The notes beneath the pieces are model-generated. The model was not told the DNA's origin, searched no databases, and saw only the letters and a list, made by a program, of their open reading frames with translations. Of a stretch of 64,000 bases of DNA, positions 1 to 64,000 are shown one piece after another (position 1 is the first letter of the stretch; the number at the start of each line of letters is the position of its first letter). The stretch is from positions 71,013-135,012 of IMG/VR virus record IMGVR_UViG_3300001765_000256; one strand, 5' to 3'. The stretch is from a virus. Made by a program: the position numbers and the translations under genes.

Positions 1-1235
1 GCTAATTTACATCCTATATGGAAATTAATAGGGTCTTTAATAAAGCCACCACGCTGTAGATATCGATCAATAAAGTCATCATGATTTGATTTAACTATAA
101 CAAGCTTCTTTACTGACTTAAGATCTCCAAATCTATCAACTTCACTAGCTGTTATTTGTAACTCACCAGCAAGGCTATTAAGTCCGTTTGTGGCTAGATT
201 AGATTTAGCTATAATATTATTATCCATATGATGAGAAATACTATTCCCATTAAATAAATCATGGAATATAACATGACTGGCAGCGGTTTGATTAATAACC
301 TCAGTCCATGCTGTAACAGCTGTCATATCATGTTCGCCAGCGTGATAATCACCCATAACAAATGTAACATCTACCTTTTTAGATCCGACTGGAGAATATT
401 CTACCCCTAGATCGCAAAAGTTACCCTTATTATCAGCCTGAACCTGTCTAAAGTGAAAAATATTATCATTCTTAATTTCAACTATAACTCCACCAAGTAG
501 ATGCTGAAAATCAGCTATGTAAGCTGTTCTTAAAGAATTCCCTTTTGTTGTCTTATAGTTAGGTAGTGTGATGGCACCTGTAGTCATACGTGCATGAGGC
601 AACCTCTTTGCAGAAACAGCATCGTACTCTAATGACTGCTTAGGTGATGCAAAAATACAAGACCCTTTATTCTGTGAAAGTTCAGATAATCCAGTGATAG
701 GATTAATCTGTTTTGCAGTCACTCTGATACCGCTAATAAAGATATTACTGTTAAGATATGTATCTTCATATACGTAATCTGTAGTCTTATGATTAATGGC
801 ATTATCAAAGTGCCACTCTGCGCCATTATCTAGATTATGTGCAGGATCATGGCTAGGAAGTATAAGTAGCATTGCTTTATTTTTCTTACAATATGTACGA
901 ATTGAACTTAAGAAACCGTCGTGTACTTTCTGTCCAGATACAGCTGTAGTAATAAAGAATCTCTTAAATTTCTTAATTTTTGTATTAAGTAGTTTAATAT
1001 TGTTATCAGACAGGTAACTATCTAGATCAATAATGTTATCGAATGACTGTAGATCTCTGTCTTTAGCTGCTTCACGCAGTTTAGACATCGTACCGAAATT
1101 ATTACGAACCTGATCACGACTAATACCTTTAGATTTAAGATCGCTACGTGTAGGAAACATCACACCTTCGCCTACTAATGATAAGTAGGCAGATATGATA
1201 TTTTCCTGTGCGGCGTTTTTATCCTTGTTTTTCAT
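1..1235 (-). CDS. T5 A1-like protein (metallophosphoesterase-type nuclease), runs off window start
   Basis: Not in ORF track; hand translation from ATG at 1235 (overlaps stop of upstream ORF) is open toward base 1: MKNKDKNAAQ...FASPKQSL...TTGAITLPNY...HLLGGVIVEI...FHFRQVQ...VMGDYHAG...FHDLFNG, motifs recalled from A1-family proteins. Confidence 0.65.
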   Translation of the reverse strand, partial: MKNKDKNAAQENIISAYLSLVGEGVMFPTRSDLKSKGISRDQVRNNFGTMSKLREAAKDRDLQSFDNIIDLDSYLSDNNIKLLNTKIKKFKRFFITTAVSGQKVHDGFLSSIRTYCKKNKAMLLILPSHDPAHNLDNGAEWHFDNAINHKTTDYVYEDTYLNSNIFISGIRVTAKQINPITGLSELSQNKGSCIFASPKQSLEYDAVSAKRLPHARMTTGAITLPNYKTTKGNSLRTAYIADFQHLLGGVIVEIKNDNIFHFRQVQADNKGNFCDLGVEYSPVGSKKVDVTFVMGDYHAGEHDMTAVTAWTEVINQTAASHVIFHDLFNGNSISHHMDNNIIAKSNLATNGLNSLAGELQITASEVDRFGDLKSVKKLVIVKSNHDDFIDRYLQRGGFIKDPINFHIGCKL

Positions 1236-45364: not shown

Positions 45365-48169
45365 ATGGCTCGTTCATATACTACCTCAGAAGGCATCGTC
45401 CTTGTGATTCCAGATTCTAGTGTAAGTGTTAATGTTATTAGTCAACCTGCTGGACTAGCTACTACTGGTGTAATAGCTTTAGTTGGTGAAGCTGATGAAG
45501 GCAAACATTGGTCTGAAGAGGCAAAACTGTCTGATAACAGCTTTGGCCCTGGAGACGTTGCTAGAGTCCAAGCTAAATACGGTTCTGGCCGATTACTTGA
45601 CGCTTTCAAAGGTCTAATCGGAGCTTCCCTATCTCCAAGAATTCAAGGTTCTTTTAATAGAGCAATCTTGGTTAAGTCTAACTTAAGCACAAAAGCTGCT
45701 AAAGAGACTGAAGATAGCCACGGTGTATTTTTCTCTAAACTTGCTGGTAAAAAAGGCAATAATATTAAAGAATCAATCTCTACATCTACTGCTGAAGCTG
45801 CACCTACAACTGCAAGCTTTTCTTATATTCCATCTGCTTCTGCTGCTTCTTTAGCTTTACGAGTTAACGGTGGATCTAAACAAACTCTAGCTATTTCTGC
45901 TAATACAACACCTGCCGCTTTAGCAACATCTTTAGTTGGCTTAAACAATATTAATGCAGTCGGTGGAGTAGATAAGCTTATCGTTGCTGGACTTGCAGCT
46001 ACAAATATTCAATTGGATGTAGTTTCAGGACAAAACGTTAATATAAAATTAGCTTCTCCTGCTGTATGGGCTTCTGCTCCTTCAGTTGGCGATACATTAA
46101 GAATTCCAGCTTCATCTGTAATCGAAGGTGGATCTGCTGAAAACGTTGGATGGTATTTAGTTACTGCTGTATCTAACTCAGCTTCTTTAGCTCAAATTAC
46201 AGCTACTAAGATCACAGCTGGAGCACCTGCTACAGTTGCAGCAATCGCTCTTAGTGTTGCACCAGGTAGCGATCTAGTTGATTATAGTGCACTTAAAATC
46301 GACAATATGTCTGGAATGAACAGAGATGTTCTTGCTAGCTTAGTTGCCGAAACAGCTACAGTTACTGTTGCTGGATCTTCACTAACTTTCACACTTGATG
46401 GTTCAAACGTATTTGATGCAGACTCTAAAATTGGAGATTTAGTTTATATTTCTTCTGCTTCTGCATTTAAAGGTGCTGGTAATGCTAACGTAGGTTGGTA
46501 TCAAGTAATCGCAGCAAGCAACTTTGCTTCATCTGCATTTGTTACTATGTCTAGACTTTCTAACGGAACTCCTGTTTCTGTAGCTTCTGCTGCAATTGCA
46601 GCTGCTGCCGATCTTCAAGTTCTTGCTCAGCAAATCGATGGTTCTGGTAAGTCTTTAGAGATTTACGATAATGCCGGAGCTGCTAATATCAGTACACTAA
46701 TGAAGCAATTAGGTGCTGATTCTGCCGCTGCATGGTTGGAATCACTCATTCTTTCTTCTGCTGAACTTAAGAAGAAAATTGAGATTTCTAAACCAAACCC
46801 ATTAGTAACTGAGTCTTTCACTCACGGTGGAAGCGTTTCTTTACTTTTAGGATATAAAGGTACTACTGCTACAGCCACTATTCAGACTATTTCTGGAATC
46901 AAAAAACTTCAGACTTCAGTTACTGGTGGAATCGGTGCAAATCTGGATATCGTTCTTAAAGATTCTAACTCAATGTCAGACCTAATTGATCTTCTAAATT
47001 TACAACCTGGATACTCTGCTTCTGCTGCTTCAGCTCAAGAAGCTCAAAGAAATCCAAGTGATGTACTTGATGAAGTTACAGCTATCGGTATATGTTCTGA
47101 TTTGTCTAGCAAACCTGGACGTATCAAACGTGACATATGGGATATGACTGCTGGATTTAATAATATCGCTAATAGCTCTACTTTAATCAATTATTCTGTA
47201 ATTAAAAAAGCAGGATTACCTGAAGATGAAGGACCTATGTTCTTATCTGGTGGAGATAAAGGTGGATCTACAGGTCTTGCAGTTAGCCAAGCTGTTGATG
47301 CATTAGCTAATATCCGATGTAATTTCGTAGTACCATTGTTTTCTCAAGATGCTGACCTTGATAAGGTAGATAACTCTACTGAGTCTGGATCCACCTACAC
47401 TATCGATGCAGTAAATGCTGCTGTAAGAACTCATTGTGTTAATATGTCTACAGCTAAAACTAAGAGACATAGAATCGGATTAGTATCTAAAAAAGGTACT
47501 TTTGATGAAGCACGAGCTTCTGCACAAACAATGGCTTCTTTCCGAGTAGCTCATTTATTCCAAGATGTAAAAGATCTTGATAGTAACGGTAACATTAAGC
47601 AATTCCAACCTTGGATGGCTTCTGTTAAAGCTGCTGGAATGCAAGCTGCTGGATTCTATAAGTCTATTTTCAATAAAGCAATCAATATATCTGGAGTAGT
47701 TAACTCTGCTGATTTCAATGATGAGTCTAACTCACAAGCTGAAGATGCTTTACTTGCAGGACTTATTCCAATTCAACGTCAAGAAGATGGATCATATACA
47801 TTCTTGTCAGATCAGTTGACATATGGATTGGATAATAACTTCGTATATAATAACTTACAAAGTGTATATGCAAGCGACATCTTAGCACTTTCTCTAGCCG
47901 ATTCTTTAAAGAAAGCTTTTGTTGGAGAATCAGTAGCTGACGTTACTGCTCCGGTTGCTGTTAGTTTTATACAAGGAAAAATGGCTGAATTCCAAAACTC
48001 AAAGTTAATAGTTGGAAGTAAGGATTTCCCATCTGGATATAAAAAGATAGAAGTATCTATTGACCAAGGCGTAATGGCTGTAAGGTGTGTTATAATACTT
48101 AGTACCTCCCTTTATTTTATACCTATAACATTGGATATTGAAGGGTTACGCGACTCAGCTTCTGCTTAA
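45365..48169 (+). CDS. contractile tail sheath protein
   Basis: IALVGEADEG, YGSGRLLDA, LSGGDKG, HCVNMS..R; 934 aa followed by tube. Confidence 0.9.
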   Translation: MARSYTTSEGIVLVIPDSSVSVNVISQPAGLATTGVIALVGEADEGKHWSEEAKLSDNSFGPGDVARVQAKYGSGRLLDAFKGLIGASLSPRIQGSFNRAILVKSNLSTKAAKETEDSHGVFFSKLAGKKGNNIKESISTSTAEAAPTTASFSYIPSASAASLALRVNGGSKQTLAISANTTPAALATSLVGLNNINAVGGVDKLIVAGLAATNIQLDVVSGQNVNIKLASPAVWASAPSVGDTLRIPASSVIEGGSAENVGWYLVTAVSNSASLAQITATKITAGAPATVAAIALSVAPGSDLVDYSALKIDNMSGMNRDVLASLVAETATVTVAGSSLTFTLDGSNVFDADSKIGDLVYISSASAFKGAGNANVGWYQVIAASNFASSAFVTMSRLSNGTPVSVASAAIAAAADLQVLAQQIDGSGKSLEIYDNAGAANISTLMKQLGADSAAAWLESLILSSAELKKKIEISKPNPLVTESFTHGGSVSLLLGYKGTTATATIQTISGIKKLQTSVTGGIGANLDIVLKDSNSMSDLIDLLNLQPGYSASAASAQEAQRNPSDVLDEVTAIGICSDLSSKPGRIKRDIWDMTAGFNNIANSSTLINYSVIKKAGLPEDEGPMFLSGGDKGGSTGLAVSQAVDALANIRCNFVVPLFSQDADLDKVDNSTESGSTYTIDAVNAAVRTHCVNMSTAKTKRHRIGLVSKKGTFDEARASAQTMASFRVAHLFQDVKDLDSNGNIKQFQPWMASVKAAGMQAAGFYKSIFNKAINISGVVNSADFNDESNSQAEDALLAGLIPIQRQEDGSYTFLSDQLTYGLDNNFVYNNLQSVYASDILALSLADSLKKAFVGESVADVTAPVAVSFIQGKMAEFQNSKLIVGSKDFPSGYKKIEVSIDQGVMAVRCVIILSTSLYFIPITLDIEGLRDSASA

Positions 48170-48205
48170 TTAGGGAATGAATAGATAATATTACAATTTT
48201 AATAG

Positions 48206-58123: not shown

Positions 58124-58597
58124 TTATTTTAAAGCGTCTGTAATTAAGACACTCTTATTAACTTCTAACTTTTTGGCAAACACAGTACCAGCCTTTTTAA
58201 GTTTTTTTGCATACTTTGCCTTAAGAGATGGCGTCTTAGAGTGGTATCTTGCTGCCCACAGACTATCCTTCTTTTTATGCTTATAATGTATGGCTAGAAT
58301 CTTAGCTGCACACATAGTATTACCAGACATCTTATATATATTATAATCCTTACATGTAGTATACCAATGGACAGAATTTACCTGGAATACACCTATATCA
58401 TATGTTCCATTGGGGTTTAATCTAGTCTTTGCATTTATACCAAATGAGCTTTCTATATAGGCTATCTTAAACAATTCCAACTCCGGCACACCATATTTTT
58501 TTGCAGCTACCTGTACATTTCTAATAATCCTACTCTCCACCGACTTTGCATTAGCGTTTGCAGATATAAGACCTATTATTAGTATTAGTGTTTTCAT
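58124..58597 (-). CDS. secreted lytic transglycosylase (SLT family)
   Basis: Signal peptide; AAKKYGV..IAYIESSF, DIGVFQVN, ARYHS. Confidence 0.88.
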   Translation of the reverse strand: MKTLILIIGLISANANAKSVESRIIRNVQVAAKKYGVPELELFKIAYIESSFGINAKTRLNPNGTYDIGVFQVNSVHWYTTCKDYNIYKMSGNTMCAAKILAIHYKHKKKDSLWAARYHSKTPSLKAKYAKKLKKAGTVFAKKLEVNKSVLITDALK

Positions 58598-59133: not shown

Positions 59134-59341
59134 GTTAAGACCTCTAGGCAAAATACTATTAGACCTAGAGCCATTAATTCAAGAGGCCATGGACGATCAT
59201 GAACTCCAACACCAAGATCTTCTTGGTCTTATAGATACATATTTGAAAGTTCATTACCCAGGATCCGATGCAGAATACACTGATGGTACAAACCCAGACA
59301 TTATATATAGATCAAAAAGGGATAAATATGGAAAACGATAA
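59126..59341 (+). CDS. hypothetical protein
   Basis: 71-aa coupled ORF. Confidence 0.6.
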   Translation: MSKLRPLGKILLDLEPLIQEAMDDHELQHQDLLGLIDTYLKVHYPGSDAEYTDGTNPDIIYRSKRDKYGKR

Positions 59342-60212
59342 AAAATATAGTACATTTCAGAAATATGGCGATAAGTATGTTGCATCGGCAGCAGGCTTTA
59401 CATATGAAGGTAAACTTACTCCTGGAGTCTACAGTATACATTATGATGGCAGATCTCAGACGTTATGGTTTGAATCTATGAAGGTGTCGCACGACTCACT
59501 TCTAGACCTACCAAGTAACGAATATTCTCAAATAATTAGAGAGATGGAACAGTTTTTAAAGCCAGAAACCAAAGAGATGTTTAAGGAGTACGGATTCATA
59601 TATAAAAGATCAGCTTTGCTATATGGTAATCCTGGCACAGGTAAAACATCAATCCTACATAGAGTTAATAGATCTGTTGTTAAATCCGGTGGAATCGTTC
59701 TGTATTGCGAAGATCCTAGATTATTACCTATTGCATACAGTGCACTTAACGATATACAACCTGAAATACTAACTACAGTTGTTTTTGAAGAGTTTGACGC
59801 AATGGCTAATCAGTATGAGAAGACACTACTGTCAGTTCTAGATGGAGAGATACAAAAAGACAATGTTATGTATCTTGCAACCACTAATTTCTTAGAAAAA
59901 GTCCCCAAGCGTCTATATAGACCTGGACGATTTTCTTCTATTATAGAAGTTGGATACCCAAACACAAAAGCTCGTAACGTATACTTCTCTAGTAAACTTA
60001 AGGATCAAGCATTGATTAGCGAACTAGTTGCAAAGACTAAAGGGTTAAGTGTAGACGAAATGAAAGAAATTATACAATCAAGTGTGATTTTAAAAAACGA
60101 TTTAGATTCAGTAATCAAGAGGCTTCAATCAACACGCGATTTTGATGCCGGAGATGCCTCTGATGACACATACGACGAAGTAGGAGAAAAGGACGAATGG
60201 AAACACAAATAG
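59328..60212 (+). CDS. AAA+ ATPase
   Basis: LLYGNPGTGKT, VFEEFD, ATTN, RPGRF; start reassigned to ATG 59328. Confidence 0.9.
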   Translation: MENDKKYSTFQKYGDKYVASAAGFTYEGKLTPGVYSIHYDGRSQTLWFESMKVSHDSLLDLPSNEYSQIIREMEQFLKPETKEMFKEYGFIYKRSALLYGNPGTGKTSILHRVNRSVVKSGGIVLYCEDPRLLPIAYSALNDIQPEILTTVVFEEFDAMANQYEKTLLSVLDGEIQKDNVMYLATTNFLEKVPKRLYRPGRFSSIIEVGYPNTKARNVYFSSKLKDQALISELVAKTKGLSVDEMKEIIQSSVILKNDLDSVIKRLQSTRDFDAGDASDDTYDEVGEKDEWKHK

Positions 60213-61063: not shown

Positions 61064-61092
61064 TTGACATGTAAACTAAACACTGTTATCGT
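61064..61092 (+). promoter_or_regulatory. sigma70-type promoter of the cas operon
   Basis: TTGACA-N17-TATCGT with TG extension; AGGAGG RBS downstream. Confidence 0.7.
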
Positions 61093-61118
61093 GTAAATAT
61101 ACGTAATAGGAGGTTTAT

Positions 61119-61388
61119 ATGATTAAGGTTAAGGTAATTAAAAGGTATCAGAACAGAAAGCTTTACGACACACAAACACACAAGTATATTTCTATGGGCG
61201 AAATAGCTAGACTGATGATGTTAAGTGATATAGAAGTTATAGTTATTGATAATGAAACTAAAAACGATATAACAAACCATACATTATTATCGGTGCTAAT
61301 GTGTCAATCCAGTGATGGTATCCAACCTAGACATGATATTATTAAAAATTTAATAGTTGAAAATTTAAAGTCCATAGGTGCTGTATGA
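61119..61388 (+). CDS. PhaR-type (PHB accumulation regulator N-terminal) DNA-binding protein
   Basis: IKRYQNRKLYDTQTHKYIS..VIDNETKNDITNHTL. Confidence 0.85.
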   Translation: MIKVKVIKRYQNRKLYDTQTHKYISMGEIARLMMLSDIEVIVIDNETKNDITNHTLLSVLMCQSSDGIQPRHDIIKNLIVENLKSIGAV

Positions 61389-62905
61389 AAAAACTACAAA
61401 AAGAAGAGACATTAACGGCTAAGCAGTCCAAGAATATAAAGGCAATTAAGTTTCCTATAATACTAAGCCATGAAGAGCGTAACAAGTTTGATCAGTGGAT
61501 TAGGCTTGGAAAAGAATTCTATAATATACTGAACAACCAAAGGCGTTTGGTAGAAAAATGGAATTTAACTAAATACTATGAAGCAAACCCCGATAAGCTA
61601 GCTGAAAAGCAAAAAAAAGAAGATGCATATCAAGCAAAAGTTAAAGCTGAGGTAGATTCTGGCAAGAGATTACCAAAACGGAAATTCGACTCGCCATTCT
61701 ATTCTCCAATACAGATTAGACACGAAGAACTGAAAGATCTTCCTATAGACGTTTTATCGCACTGCTATGGAGCCAGTACATTTGAAGAATTAATGGCGTT
61801 AGACGGCAAGGAAATTAAAAATAATAAGCAAGGTGTGCCTCAAATATACCTGTCTTATGTGGATCAATCCAGGTACGGCACAAAACTTAGAAATATATAC
61901 CCTGAATTTAATATTATGCCCAGCTCTTATTGGCTTGGTATTTGCCATCAAGTTGACAAGGCTTTTACTGATTTTCGTAAAAACAAAGCAAAATCTATAT
62001 ACAGACTTCCTTCTTTTAAGAAAAGAGATGATGATTTTTCGTTAATAGGCAAATCTGGTGGAGATAATAATATTAAAGTAAAACCGTTAGTGTTAAACGG
62101 TAAACGGTATGCACGCATAACAGGTTTGTCATCTAGCTATTTCCCTAATGGAATCAAGATACGTATGTTCAAGCCTATTAACGGTAAGATAATTCTTACG
62201 TCTATAAAAAAAGAAGGCAATGACTACTTCCTAAGCATTACGTTTGAAGAACAGAAGGTACACTGGCCGTATAAGCATGAGTCTGTAGGTGTAGATTTAG
62301 GTGTAGTTCGTAATATACAGCTATCTAATGGCGAGTATAAGCAACTACCTATAGATAAAATTAAATCACTAGAAGAAAAACAAAAAAGAATGCAGCGAAA
62401 ACTGTCTAAAAAGAAAGAGCGATCTAAGAATTATTTAAAGTATAATGCTAAGATAGCTAGGATTAGTGAAAAGATAGCTAACACTAGAAAGTACCATGTT
62501 TCTATGTTCGCAACAGAAATAGCTAGAGATTATAATATTATTGCTATAGAGAACTTAAAAGTAAAAAATATGACAAAGAGTGCTAGTGGTGATATTGACG
62601 AGCCTGGTAAAAACGTAGCACAGAAATCTGGATTAAATAAGAGTATATTAAGGGTCGCACCGTATATGATTAGGATGAAACTCGAAGCTAAGGCTAAAGA
62701 GTACGGACGAACTGTTGTGGCTGTAGATCCAAAATATACGTCGCAGGAGTGTTCTAGGTGTCACCATACAGATAAGAAAAACAGAGAAGACCAGTCTACT
62801 TTTGTGTGTAAAAGTTGTGGTTTTGAGATAAACGCCGATCTTAATGCCGCGTTAAATATACATACCAGAGGTCTTGACAGTATTAACATTAAGGATGGCA
62901 CGTGA
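61385..62905 (+). CDS. TnpB/Cas12f-like RNA-guided nuclease, candidate type V effector
   Basis: RuvC-I VGVDLGV, RuvC-II IAIENLKVKNM, zinc finger CSRC..CKSC, RuvC-III NADLNAALNI; YTSQ motif; 506 aa. Confidence 0.9.
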   Translation: MKKLQKEETLTAKQSKNIKAIKFPIILSHEERNKFDQWIRLGKEFYNILNNQRRLVEKWNLTKYYEANPDKLAEKQKKEDAYQAKVKAEVDSGKRLPKRKFDSPFYSPIQIRHEELKDLPIDVLSHCYGASTFEELMALDGKEIKNNKQGVPQIYLSYVDQSRYGTKLRNIYPEFNIMPSSYWLGICHQVDKAFTDFRKNKAKSIYRLPSFKKRDDDFSLIGKSGGDNNIKVKPLVLNGKRYARITGLSSSYFPNGIKIRMFKPINGKIILTSIKKEGNDYFLSITFEEQKVHWPYKHESVGVDLGVVRNIQLSNGEYKQLPIDKIKSLEEKQKRMQRKLSKKKERSKNYLKYNAKIARISEKIANTRKYHVSMFATEIARDYNIIAIENLKVKNMTKSASGDIDEPGKNVAQKSGLNKSILRVAPYMIRMKLEAKAKEYGRTVVAVDPKYTSQECSRCHHTDKKNREDQSTFVCKSCGFEINADLNAALNIHTRGLDSINIKDGT

Positions 62906-63705
62906 GTGGTATAAGTTTGCCATTAATATCCGACAGAGAACCGTTTCTTTTGATTGAAAAAGCTAAAGTGTGTATATCTGGAGGATACGTAATGGCAGTT
63001 AAGAATAATCGTAAGATGAATATACCATCTAAACAGGTGTTTATGTTAATTATCGGCACAGGATGCTCCATTACAACTGAAGCAGCAATACAACTATCTA
63101 AAGATGGGTGCAATATTGCCTATTCAAGAGGTGGAGCTAATATACACACTACGTTCGTATCTGAACAGTACAAAAATCCACGCAAATTAATTAACCAGGT
63201 AGGCTTAGTAAGCAATAAACAGCATAGGCTTGAAATAGCTCGTAAGATCGTAATGGCTAAATTAATAAATCAGCACGTACAGTTCAGTGCTTCTGATATA
63301 TCAAAAGCGGGAACAGTAGAGATGTTATTAGGATATGAAGGTGCAGCACAAAAAAATTGGTATAATAATTTATTTGGAGAAGGGTTTAGGCGTAGTTTTA
63401 CAGGAGAAGATGATTATAACAAAATGATAAACATCTCAAACTCTGTATTGTATAACTTTACGGCCAGTATAATCACATGTCTTGGATACTCTACATCTAT
63501 CGGTTTCTTACACGGATCTACTAGACGCGGAGCGTTAGCCTTAGATGTATCCGATATTTTTAAGCCTAATATGTTGCGTTACATTAAACATAGCAATTCT
63601 AAGAATATAGTTAGATCATGCTTTGATTTCTTAAATAAAGATAATAAGAACTACACTAGACATATAATTAAAACAGTTGAGGAATTATGTACATCGCCAT
63701 TGTAA
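62902..63705 (+). CDS. cas1: CRISPR integrase Cas1, type I-F-like, compact
   Basis: NIP..IIGTGCSITTEAA (I-F: LLGTGTSITQAA), LLGYEG, FLHGSTRRGALALDVSDIFK (I-F: HGKTRRGGLVFDVADLIK); catalytic E/H/D present. Confidence 0.88.
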   Translation: MSGISLPLISDREPFLLIEKAKVCISGGYVMAVKNNRKMNIPSKQVFMLIIGTGCSITTEAAIQLSKDGCNIAYSRGGANIHTTFVSEQYKNPRKLINQVGLVSNKQHRLEIARKIVMAKLINQHVQFSASDISKAGTVEMLLGYEGAAQKNWYNNLFGEGFRRSFTGEDDYNKMINISNSVLYNFTASIITCLGYSTSIGFLHGSTRRGALALDVSDIFKPNMLRYIKHSNSKNIVRSCFDFLNKDNKNYTRHIIKTVEELCTSPL

Positions 63706-63929
63706 ACAACAGAAAAACAGCTAAGCTAATATGTCGCAGCTTCTTTTTACTTGATAGGAATGTATGGATTGGAGACATAACAGATCGTGAAGCAGAGATA
63801 CTTAAAAGTAAGGCGGTAGCGTATGGTACAAACAACATTAAACTTTTTAAAATAACTAAACGGGTAGTAGAAATTACATGCAATAATACTAATTATATAG
63901 AAAAGTGTATTGACTTTATGTCCGAGTAG
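63687..63929 (+). CDS. cas2: stand-alone Cas2 resembling the Cas2 domain of I-F Cas2-3
   Basis: 80 aa overlapping cas1; LDRNVWIGDITDREAEIL parallels RTWQTPITQAGLDTL of I-F Cas2-3. Confidence 0.7.
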   Translation: MYIAIVNNRKTAKLICRSFFLLDRNVWIGDITDREAEILKSKAVAYGTNNIKLFKITKRVVEITCNNTNYIEKCIDFMSE

Positions 63930-63938
63930 TGTTATATT
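63910..63938 (+). promoter_or_regulatory. sigma70-type promoter for downstream non-coding RNA/CRISPR array
   Basis: TTGACT-N17-TATATT with TG extension, overlapping cas2 3' end. Confidence 0.7.
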
Positions 63939-63944
63939 TAATTA

Positions 63945-64000
63945 AATAGGCAGCCTTACCTGCCGAATTTAGACCGAAAGGTCTTAGAAGCCTGCGGAGA
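63945..64000 (+). CRISPR. candidate first CRISPR repeat or guide-RNA scaffold (single copy, truncated by window)
   Basis: GC-rich structured stretch after promoter: GGCAG/CTGCC and AGACC-GAAA-GGTCT hairpins; 36-mer 63955-63990 bounded by CTT...AAG. Only one copy visible. Confidence 0.45.

Follow-up and report, generated by a model that had tools for sequence, protein, structure and literature searches.

At the end of a stretch of phage DNA lies a compact operon that probably forms, together with repeat arrays elsewhere in the same genome, a miniature type V CRISPR-Cas system. The window, that is, the whole stretch of 64,000 nucleotides (nt) that we analysed, is the last 64 kb of the 135,012-bp IMG/VR virus record IMGVR_UViG_3300001765_000256, a record estimated to be ~82% complete. 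The contig ends where the window does, so that the arrays, which are found elsewhere in the contig, could not be seen from the window alone. The operon and the element that follows it comprise these features, in window coordinates:

61064-61092, plus strand: sigma-70-like promoter of the cas operon (TTGACA, 17 nt, TATCGT, TG), consensus match 10/12
61119-61388, plus strand: first gene of the operon, PhaR-type DNA-binding protein, 89 amino acids (aa), PF07879 at E 3.7e-19
61385-62905, plus strand: TnpB-derived RuvC effector (Cas12-like), 506 aa, with an enlarged helical recognition (REC) region and a zinc-ribbon TNB domain, from profiles, alignment and a structure model
62902-63705, plus strand: Cas1 integrase, 267 aa, of a clade apart from I-E and I-F, from TIGR00287, a tree and active-site residues
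63687-63929, plus strand: Cas2-like open reading frame (ORF), 80 aa, ferredoxin-like fold by structure comparison, no sequence-family match
63910-63938, plus strand: second promoter (TTGACT, 17 nt, TATATT, TG), overlapping the last codons of the Cas2-like ORF and opening a duplicated unit
63944-64000, plus strand: 5' part of an element resembling a trans-activating CRISPR RNA (tracrRNA), cut at the contig end, recognised by repeat pairing and a duplicated copy
63949-63964, plus strand: hairpin 1 of the element, loop complementary to the 3' end of the repeat
63971-63984, plus strand: hairpin 2 of the element

The promoter and the four coupled ORFs of a preliminary description, which had been made from the sequence alone, were found again with all three junctions: an ATGA overlap between the PhaR-like and effector genes, a GTGA overlap between the effector gene and cas1, and a 19-nt overlap between cas1 and the Cas2-like ORF. 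The first ORF was correctly recognised there as a PhaR-type regulator, given its PHB_acc_N match; it scores below the PhaR equivalog cut-off (48.9 vs 109.45 bits), and the gene is not conserved in the sister locus described below. Both promoters are the best plus-strand sites in a consensus scan, each with 10 of 12 consensus positions and a TG, and are promoter-like by consensus match, such sites being not enriched in the region (16, vs 13.4 in shuffled sequence; standard deviation (sd) 4.1). The same holds for the second promoter that the preliminary description had placed before a structured element; the element itself stands, since an identical copy of 87 nt, counted from the -35 hexamer, precedes a second array.

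The effector is a member of the family named 'RNA-guided endonuclease TnpB family' (NCBIfam guided_TnpB, NF040570; 205.8 bits, cut-off 100), and it also matches OrfB_IS605 and the Cas12f1-like TNB zinc ribbon in Pfam and NCBIfam. It stays below the cut-offs of the element-specific TnpB models (IS200_TnpB, 141 vs 425 bits; IS607_TnpB, 95.6 vs 350), of C2c8 (NF038192, 130 vs 350 bits, with relatives at 72.8-146.9 bits), and of the NCBIfam Cas12f2 model (78 vs 450 bits). In PADLOC, a library without cut-offs, the best profiles are Cas12u4 (201 bits), Cas12f (up to 192) and Cas12u2 (169), and the sequence matches among solved structures are 9nzq (4.1e-25) and 9j09 (2.4e-24, over residues 300-493 only). 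Residues D304, E389 and D485 and the cysteines C456, C459, C475 and C478 are invariant in an alignment of 45 sequences, which bears out the claim of a RuvC nuclease with all its acidic catalytic motifs and a zinc finger. The lengthened N-terminal REC region proposed at the same time is seen in an AlphaFold model (pLDDT 90.6; predicted template modelling score (pTM) 0.79), in which long helices span residues 29-200 ahead of a TnpB-like core. Searched with Foldseek, this model finds Cas12p, ISDra2 TnpB, AsCas12f, CnCas12f1 and OsCas12f nearly level (7.5e-18 to 7.3e-17), and it superposes on ISDra2 TnpB with a template modelling (TM) score of 0.82, normalised on TnpB.

A tree of the effector and its relatives was built from 57 chosen rows, comprising eight of the nine close relatives (P0004, which is truncated, was omitted), the protein of the sister locus, 36 of the 120 listed proteins and 12 locus ORFs. 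The effector falls in an eight-row clade with support of 100, and this clade joins the sister protein and P0048 in a single 21-row clade (98 in the Shimodaira-Hasegawa-like approximate likelihood-ratio test, SH-aLRT) that also holds proteins of 413-463 aa; to ordinary family members of that size the effector is 40-45% identical over two thirds of its length. Scans of IMG/VR with the effector and with its alignment returned nothing closer than 36%, the matches listed from a metagenome scan with the clade alignment were dominated by ordinary TnpBs, and the 135-kb record holds one TnpB-family gene only. Among 115 loci of TnpB relatives, nine carry a CRISPR-like array (two of these are one contig found twice, and three share one array word), and no Cas1 was found in any of the 115. 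At loci L025, L033, L105-L107 and L111, TnpB-like genes 28-45% identical to the effector are followed 150-250 nt downstream by a short CRISPR-like array, and none of the loci holds a Cas1. They resemble loci of the TranC/V-U kind, and three are on viral contigs.

The 267-aa protein passes the general Cas1 model (TIGR00287, 116.5 bits; cut-off 71.7), and its residues E146, H204, D215 and D218 are invariant in 19 members of its clade. The preliminary description had derived it from type I-F. That derivation is not supported: the protein scores 73.4 bits on the I-F model (TIGR03637), below the cut-off of 150, and higher, at 97.5 bits, on the I-E model (TIGR03638), where it is likewise below the cut-off of 215.6. 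An exhaustive HMMER search with Cas1 gave 727 matches at E <= 0.001, and a FastTree phylogeny of 141 of 151 sequences (ten were left out on length) resolved four clades of 63, 31, 18 and 27 rows. The 63-row clade is I-E, all four sampled members exceeding the I-E cut-off, and the 31-row clade is I-F by the same token (three of three); none of three sampled from the 18-row clade exceeds a cut-off. Our protein lies in the 27-row clade (support 97), in which none of ten sampled members exceeds the I-E or the I-F cut-off and nine of the ten score higher on I-E than on I-F. Judged by sequence, then, this Cas1 is not I-F-derived and represents a separate clade between I-E and I-F. The adaptation module belongs to the wider I-E/I-F lineage, an assignment that fits the 28/32 geometry of the arrays and the solo small ORF beside cas1. 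Searches of IMG/VR with the single Cas1 or with the repeat gave no match; in cellular genome contigs the best match among the best 80 loci listed has 29% identity, which is no proof of absence from cells. A related Cas1 domain forms the C-terminus (residues ~850-1150) of four proteins of 1128-1216 aa (P0151, P0190, P0257 and P0261), with ~850 residues N-terminal to it.

An array search beyond the operon, suggested in the preliminary description, found arrays at the contig start and at ~48 kb of the same genome. In the coordinates of the record contig (G000:C1), and all outside the window, the features are:

3-211, plus strand: array 1, four repeats, at the contig start
47809-48079, minus strand: array 2, five repeats, at ~48 kb
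48080-48205, minus strand: full copy 2 of the tracrRNA-like element

All nine repeats are identical and 28 nt long, and the seven spacers (three and four) are 32-34 nt long and all different. Spacer GC content is 0.449, vs 0.360 for the phage's own 32-mers (P ~0.002), as expected for DNA taken from elsewhere. The final 107 bases of the cas locus recur at 93% near 48 kb on the minus strand; from the -35 hexamer on, this copy is identical to the window tail over 87 nt, and upstream of the hexamer the two are unrelated. The duplicated unit is therefore promoter, element and array, and it brings along the last codons of the Cas2-like ORF. The promoter of copy 2 outscores all other sites of its region, and on the way from there to the array the strand has no terminator-like site.

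An independent assembly, consisting of Logan contigs from the probable source run (a microbial-mat metagenome) mapped on the array-2 region, agrees with this arrangement. One 188-nt contig joins the promoter, the whole element and repeat 1 of array 2, which confirms their order at a point where the record has a few N, and its depth is 35.1 vs 10-11 in the flanks; the unit thus has about three copies per genome. On the upstream side of the promoter the Logan contigs fork: some continue as in the record, others into the 3' end of cas2, into a context that closes with a degenerate repeat and 12 nt more, or into a branch absent from the record contig. We infer that tandem cassettes occupy the unassembled stretch between the contig end and its start. 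Of 36 Logan contigs on the array region, 20 fit two places and are read as further repeat-spacer-repeat pieces. Contigs that bridge single spacers of array 2 have depths of 6.4-10.6, vs 10-11 for flanking phage DNA; with the doubly placed contigs, these depths suggest variation in spacer content within the population and more spacers than the record holds. From run X2 (9% of words), no contig mapped to the region of array 2.

The same gene order occurs in another phage. The sister locus, L121, was retrieved via an alignment of the nearest Cas1 sequences and lies at the end of a 162,446-bp viral contig (CheckV 100%). It encodes a 511-aa TnpB-family protein, a 277-aa Cas1 joined to it by an ATGA overlap and an 89-aa ORF overlapping cas1, followed by an RNA gene and an array. 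The RNA gene occupies ~270 nt of non-coding sequence with a 10-pair terminator at its end, and this terminator sits 33 nt before an array whose 28-nt repeats recur every 60 nt. Cut by the end of the contig, the array resumes on the same strand where the contig begins and counts 16 repeats in total, a break that supports joining the contig end of the phage studied here to its own start. Compared with their counterparts in our phage, the L121 effector is 37% identical over residues 235-501 and the L121 Cas1 36%. Because L121 keeps the architecture at so low an identity, a single recent recruitment of TnpB, as implied beforehand, is doubtful. Co-occurrence is implied on two more contigs: P0003 (effector, 58%) and P0124 (Cas1, 43%) are both on a contig of 54,593 bp, and P0007 (effector) and P0125 (Cas1) on one of 3,151 bp. 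No further effector-Cas1 pair was found among 17 more members of the Cas1 clade and 12 effector relatives.

The 80-aa ORF is probably a Cas2. It overlaps cas1, a position expected of cas2; a single-sequence model (pLDDT 67) has the order beta-alpha-beta-beta-alpha-beta; and the nearest structural neighbour of its ESM Atlas model is a Cas2 cluster (TM 0.71). In a global alignment with the 89-aa ORF of L121 it scores 4.75 sd over shuffles, a value reached by none of 2000, and D..VWIG..T.R is common to both. The ORF and its junction with cas1 are as described beforehand; of the Cas2 assignment, what is seen is a fold that is ferredoxin-like only. The ORF has no match in Pfam, NCBIfam, PADLOC or the PDB sequences, and a word search among 5.8 billion proteins returned itself only. 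Cas2 chains fill nine of the ten top Foldseek rows, yet at E 0.11 or worse, with none at <=0.001 in the PDB; VIA rescoring gives Cas2 chains Z 4.1-4.2, level with many unrelated ferredoxin-like folds. The 89-aa ORF of L121 has a poor ESM Atlas model with neighbours other than Cas2, and BLASTP finds no match between the two ORFs. These weak points of the Cas2 assignment count against the reading of a complete system.

The elements that precede the arrays in the two phages resemble each other in ways that follow the repeats. Both open with AAATAGG right after the promoter, and the longest word common to both is GAAACAGGAA. In our phage GAAACAGGAA is followed directly by TTATGCGCG (9 nt), which is complementary to repeat nt 12-20; in L121, GAAACAGGAA is followed by one base and then by CATCCGTA (8 nt), complementary to nt 12-19 of L121's own repeat, and the repeats of the two loci are identical at 16 of 28 positions. 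A shared 10-mer together with at least 8 complementary bases in both was met in 1 of 20,000 shuffle pairs. Hairpin 1 reads GGCAG-CCUUAC-CUGCC in our phage and CCGAG-CUUUCU-CUCGG in L121, and with the same geometry in both its loop pairs with the locus's own repeat at nt 25-28 and, past a bulged A24, at nt 22-23. The loop is the sole 6-mer in each element that fits four pairs, a bulged A24 and two pairs, and cross-pairings between the loci fail at three of six positions, hence three compensatory changes. Because the elements share a box, and because anti-repeat and hairpin loop both covary with each locus's repeat, the element is, as far as comparative sequence analysis can tell, a tracrRNA. 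A pseudoknot between tracrRNA and the 3' end of the repeat is described as typical of TnpB-derived effectors in the part of a preprint available to us (10.1101/2025.01.20.633832). In our phage the element runs into the array without a terminator, and in the fold of minimum energy the anti-repeat is paired in cis, with repeat 1; in L121 the tracrRNA-like RNA has its own terminator.

The best anti-repeat of a duplex scan, at window positions 63548-63588 inside cas1 (-21 kcal/mol vs a background of -8.9, sd 3.3), was treated as chance. The box GAAACAGGAA has 10 further occurrences in 2.18 Mb of stored loci. One of them, at L056:2907, is in the 3' part of an ordinary tnpB ORF region, ~50 nt beyond the point where the alignment of the gene stops and at the place expected of an omega-RNA; this copy could be a trace of common RNA ancestry or could be chance, and a single case proves nothing.

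Integrases of types I-E and I-F read leader motifs. The element might therefore be a CRISPR leader only, consisting of a promoter and Cas1-Cas2 integration signals, with the effector using CRISPR RNA (crRNA) alone; a structure titled 'Cas1-Cas2/3 integrase and IHF bound to CRISPR leader' (8flj) illustrates such a role. In keeping with a leader, the RNA pieces fold with ordinary energies (z -1.32, -1.48 and -0.57), and in our phage repeat 1 follows the element directly, the strand having no terminator there. We nevertheless regard a leader without tracrRNA as unlikely. A strong terminator closes the L121 element 33 nt ahead of the array and marks it as an RNA gene of its own; covariation with the repeat is seen in two distinct stretches, in a way that base pairing only can explain; and the repeat is nearly unstructured (-1.7 kcal/mol), as in tracrRNA-dependent small Cas12 and TnpB systems. 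Besides the ordinary folding energies, the absence of any Rfam match to the element at E up to 1, the failure of the consensus scan to find the L121 tracrRNA promoter, and a comparison that rests on two loci only tell against the tracrRNA assignment.

Taken together, these features point, with a probability of roughly 0.8, to a complete phage-encoded miniature type V CRISPR-Cas system made up of a TnpB-derived nuclease, Cas1, a Cas2-like protein, a tracrRNA-like RNA and arrays. Transcription, processing, cleavage, adaptation and targets we infer as follows. Promoter 1 would drive the coupled operon of the PhaR-like regulator, the 506-aa nuclease, Cas1 and the Cas2-like protein, and promoter 2, at the end of the Cas2-like ORF, would drive a tracrRNA-like RNA of ~125-135 nt. 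In our phage this RNA would read straight into the array of 28-nt repeats and 32-34-nt spacers, with the promoter-tracrRNA-array cassette in about three copies per genome. The tracrRNA would pair with each repeat twice, through the anti-repeat at nt 12-20 and through a pseudoknot of the hairpin-1 loop with nt 22-28. The nuclease may bind the resulting duplex, with the spacer as a 3' guide, as in TnpB omega-RNA and Cas12f, and would cut matching DNA beside a 5' motif. Cas1 and Cas2 would insert new spacers, the I-E/I-F-like lineage of Cas1 presumably setting the 28/32 geometry, and the most likely targets are competing mobile elements or host elements.

Type V features are present in that the locus has one effector only, a RuvC protein of the TnpB/Cas12 family whose triad is intact, and arrays stand behind the same promoter-tracrRNA unit; adjacency of effector locus and array is seen directly in L121 and is presumed in our phage. 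The preliminary description of a compact, phage-borne, type V-like system, in which an effector close to TnpB is accompanied by Cas1 and Cas2-like genes of the system's own, is thus upheld, and arrays are present. Weighing against this reading, beyond the points already raised on Cas2 and the tracrRNA, no contiguous stretch holds both the cas operon and an array, the contig breaking inside the tracrRNA so that the join is presumed; the ~18% of the genome outside the record may hold other cas genes; and protospacer searches with both arrays against GenBank phages and PLSDB plasmids gave chance-level matches only (E 0.6-0.7), hence no target or protospacer-adjacent motif from them.

A real system might serve some end other than adaptive defence, its adaptation dead or its nuclease used for guide-directed host takeover, regulation or homing. 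Such a role would suit the lack of a protospacer match in the collections tried: apart from the searches above, the 24-nt starts of three of the seven spacers had no match in IMG/VR, and no self-targets or cross-targets were found among stored loci. The arrays are also short in the contig, with three and four spacers, and phage CRISPR systems reportedly serve varied purposes (10.64898/2026.09.14.751636). The catalytic residues of Cas1 are nevertheless invariant and the RuvC triad is intact, the several cassettes carry spacers that are all different and GC-richer, and the doubly placed Logan contigs read as extra repeat-spacer-repeat pieces, so that we consider a non-defensive role improbable. 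Least probable, and largely refuted, is an insertion sequence (IS)-borne TnpB that landed by chance beside a class 1 adaptation module, with Cascade and Cas3 encoded by the host or by phage sequence that the record lacks: although the effector passes the generic TnpB model only and the record is incomplete, 4-nt start-stop overlaps flank the effector on both sides, the tracrRNA-like RNA matches the repeats, the order recurs in L121 and is implied on two more contigs, and no Cas3 (cas3_core), Csy3, Cas7e or Y1 transposase TnpA was found in the 135-kb record, in line with the preliminary description, which had seen no Csy/Cascade partners in the window.

A miniature type V system thus remains the preferred reading, and its parts can be set against known systems. 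With the TnpB of IS200/IS605 and IS607 elements (ISDra2; 8h1j and 8exa) the effector shares fold, catalytic layout and the NF040570 match, and as there the guide is expected 3' of the scaffold, with a pseudoknot beside the guide. It differs in ~100 extra helical REC residues, in being embedded in a cas1-cas2 operon with arrays, and in a guide RNA split into tracrRNA and repeat-spacer units; as to a transposon context, the record has no Y1 transposase and the element no Rfam match, the IS607 serine recombinase not having been searched for. Cas12n (V-U4, 9j09), Cas12f (V-F; OsCas12f 9nzq, AsCas12f 8j12), V-U2/C2c8 and TranC are alike in size (400-600 aa), in tracrRNA-dependent layout and in a downstream array. 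The effector falls below the curated cut-offs of both C2c8 and Cas12f2, as given above. According to the available part of a preprint, the tracrRNA of Cas12n lies in the 3' tail of the effector ORF, whereas here it follows the Cas2-like ORF. For the TranC clades, a 2026 preprint gives, in the portion available, repeats of 32-38 nt and no associated accessory Cas proteins, unlike the 28-nt repeats and the coupled Cas1 and Cas2-like genes here.

The I-F system of Vibrio phage ICP1 is likewise a phage-borne CRISPR-Cas system with its own adaptation genes and the same 28/32 geometry, and ICP1 Cas1 structures (8k25, 8k23 and 8k21; 2e-20) are the best solved relatives of our Cas1 by sequence; at 25% identity only, however, ICP1 Cas1 belongs to another clade. 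ICP1 has Csy/Cascade and a Cas2/3 fusion, and our phage instead a single TnpB-type effector and a solo Cas2-like ORF: the Cas2-Cas3 fusion that is a hallmark of I-F is absent, the ORF being 80 aa long and the record lacking a cas3_core match. Cas12p ('Cas12 hacker', 9jfs; 500-700 aa) is similar in its phage origin, in its nearness to TnpB and, in the available part of its description (10.1101/2025.01.20.633832), in a pseudoknot between tracrRNA and repeat 3' end. Cas12p is the top Foldseek match of the effector (7.5e-18), with a weak sequence match (4.4e-07); it has a 37-nt repeat and a 185-nt tracrRNA, and the same portion of that source mentions no coupling to cas1-cas2. Cas-delta (867-936 aa, tracrRNA-free) and the Cas12m of a myxophage were considered and are unrelated to this system.

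Recruitment of TnpB by CRISPR loci is by now a familiar event. As far as the available parts of these sources go, 40 further CRISPR-linked TnpB branches (V-U6 to V-U45) are listed, at least 12 acquisitions of adaptation genes by Cas12s are counted, and the arrays are placed downstream of the effector (PMC10691335); ~50 independent TnpB-to-Cas12 events are counted and more are expected (PMC12669027). Phage-borne type V systems are usually described without adaptation genes (10.64898/2026.09.14.751636), and two virome papers, in the parts available, report phage TnpB-like effectors beside arrays and no adaptation genes. In this partly available literature we found no description of a phage TnpB-type effector coupled to a Cas1-Cas2 of the I-E/I-F lineage, and the lists of V-U6 to V-U45 (PMC10691335) and of TranC may hold the lineage. 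Since independent TnpB recruitments and adaptation captures are already published, the general phenomenon is known and is no new principle; of the candidate new type V system announced beforehand, the system stands and the novelty is tempered. The gain is a well-resolved new lineage, one of a rare family carried by phages.

We tentatively propose a so far undescribed type V subtype restricted to large phages, in which a barely diverged TnpB has been coupled to an I-E/I-F-lineage integrase, a module found in class 1 systems otherwise. The guide would be caught between two states: here tracrRNA and array would still form a single transcript, as if the guide of an omega-RNA had turned into an array, and in the sister phage the tracrRNA has its own terminator. 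The cassette would multiply within the genome. If active, the system would be among the smallest self-sufficient adaptive CRISPR systems (~2.9 kb with the tracrRNA) and a living intermediate of the omega-RNA split. A TnpB-sized nuclease with its own integrase, tracrRNA and several arrays in less than 3 kb offers a compact natural test bed for how a transposon nuclease becomes an adaptive immune effector, how a class 1 integrase lineage sets array geometry for a class 2 effector, and how omega-RNA was split into tracrRNA and crRNA. With its defined guide architecture, the nuclease is a candidate for a miniature enzyme for genome editing as well.

Other features of the two phages concern their wider genomes. 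The large terminase and its counterpart in Myxococcus phage Mx1 share 26% identity, so the phage represents a distant lineage. Two genes upstream of the cas operon, at window positions 59268-60212 on the plus strand, lies a gene for an AAA+ ATPase (PF00004, 5.6e-13). Beyond the window, at G000:C1:27440-28473, Tandem Repeats Finder detects a 159-nt coding repeat in 6.5 tandem copies with 84% matches, presumably part of a repeat-domain structural protein. Finally, an SLT lytic transglycosylase gene (PF01464) lies within 3 kb upstream of the CRISPR operon in both of these otherwise distant phages, at 58124-58597 on the minus strand of the window (9.5e-08) and at L121:5655-6131 on the plus strand (4e-11), a hint of shared synteny.

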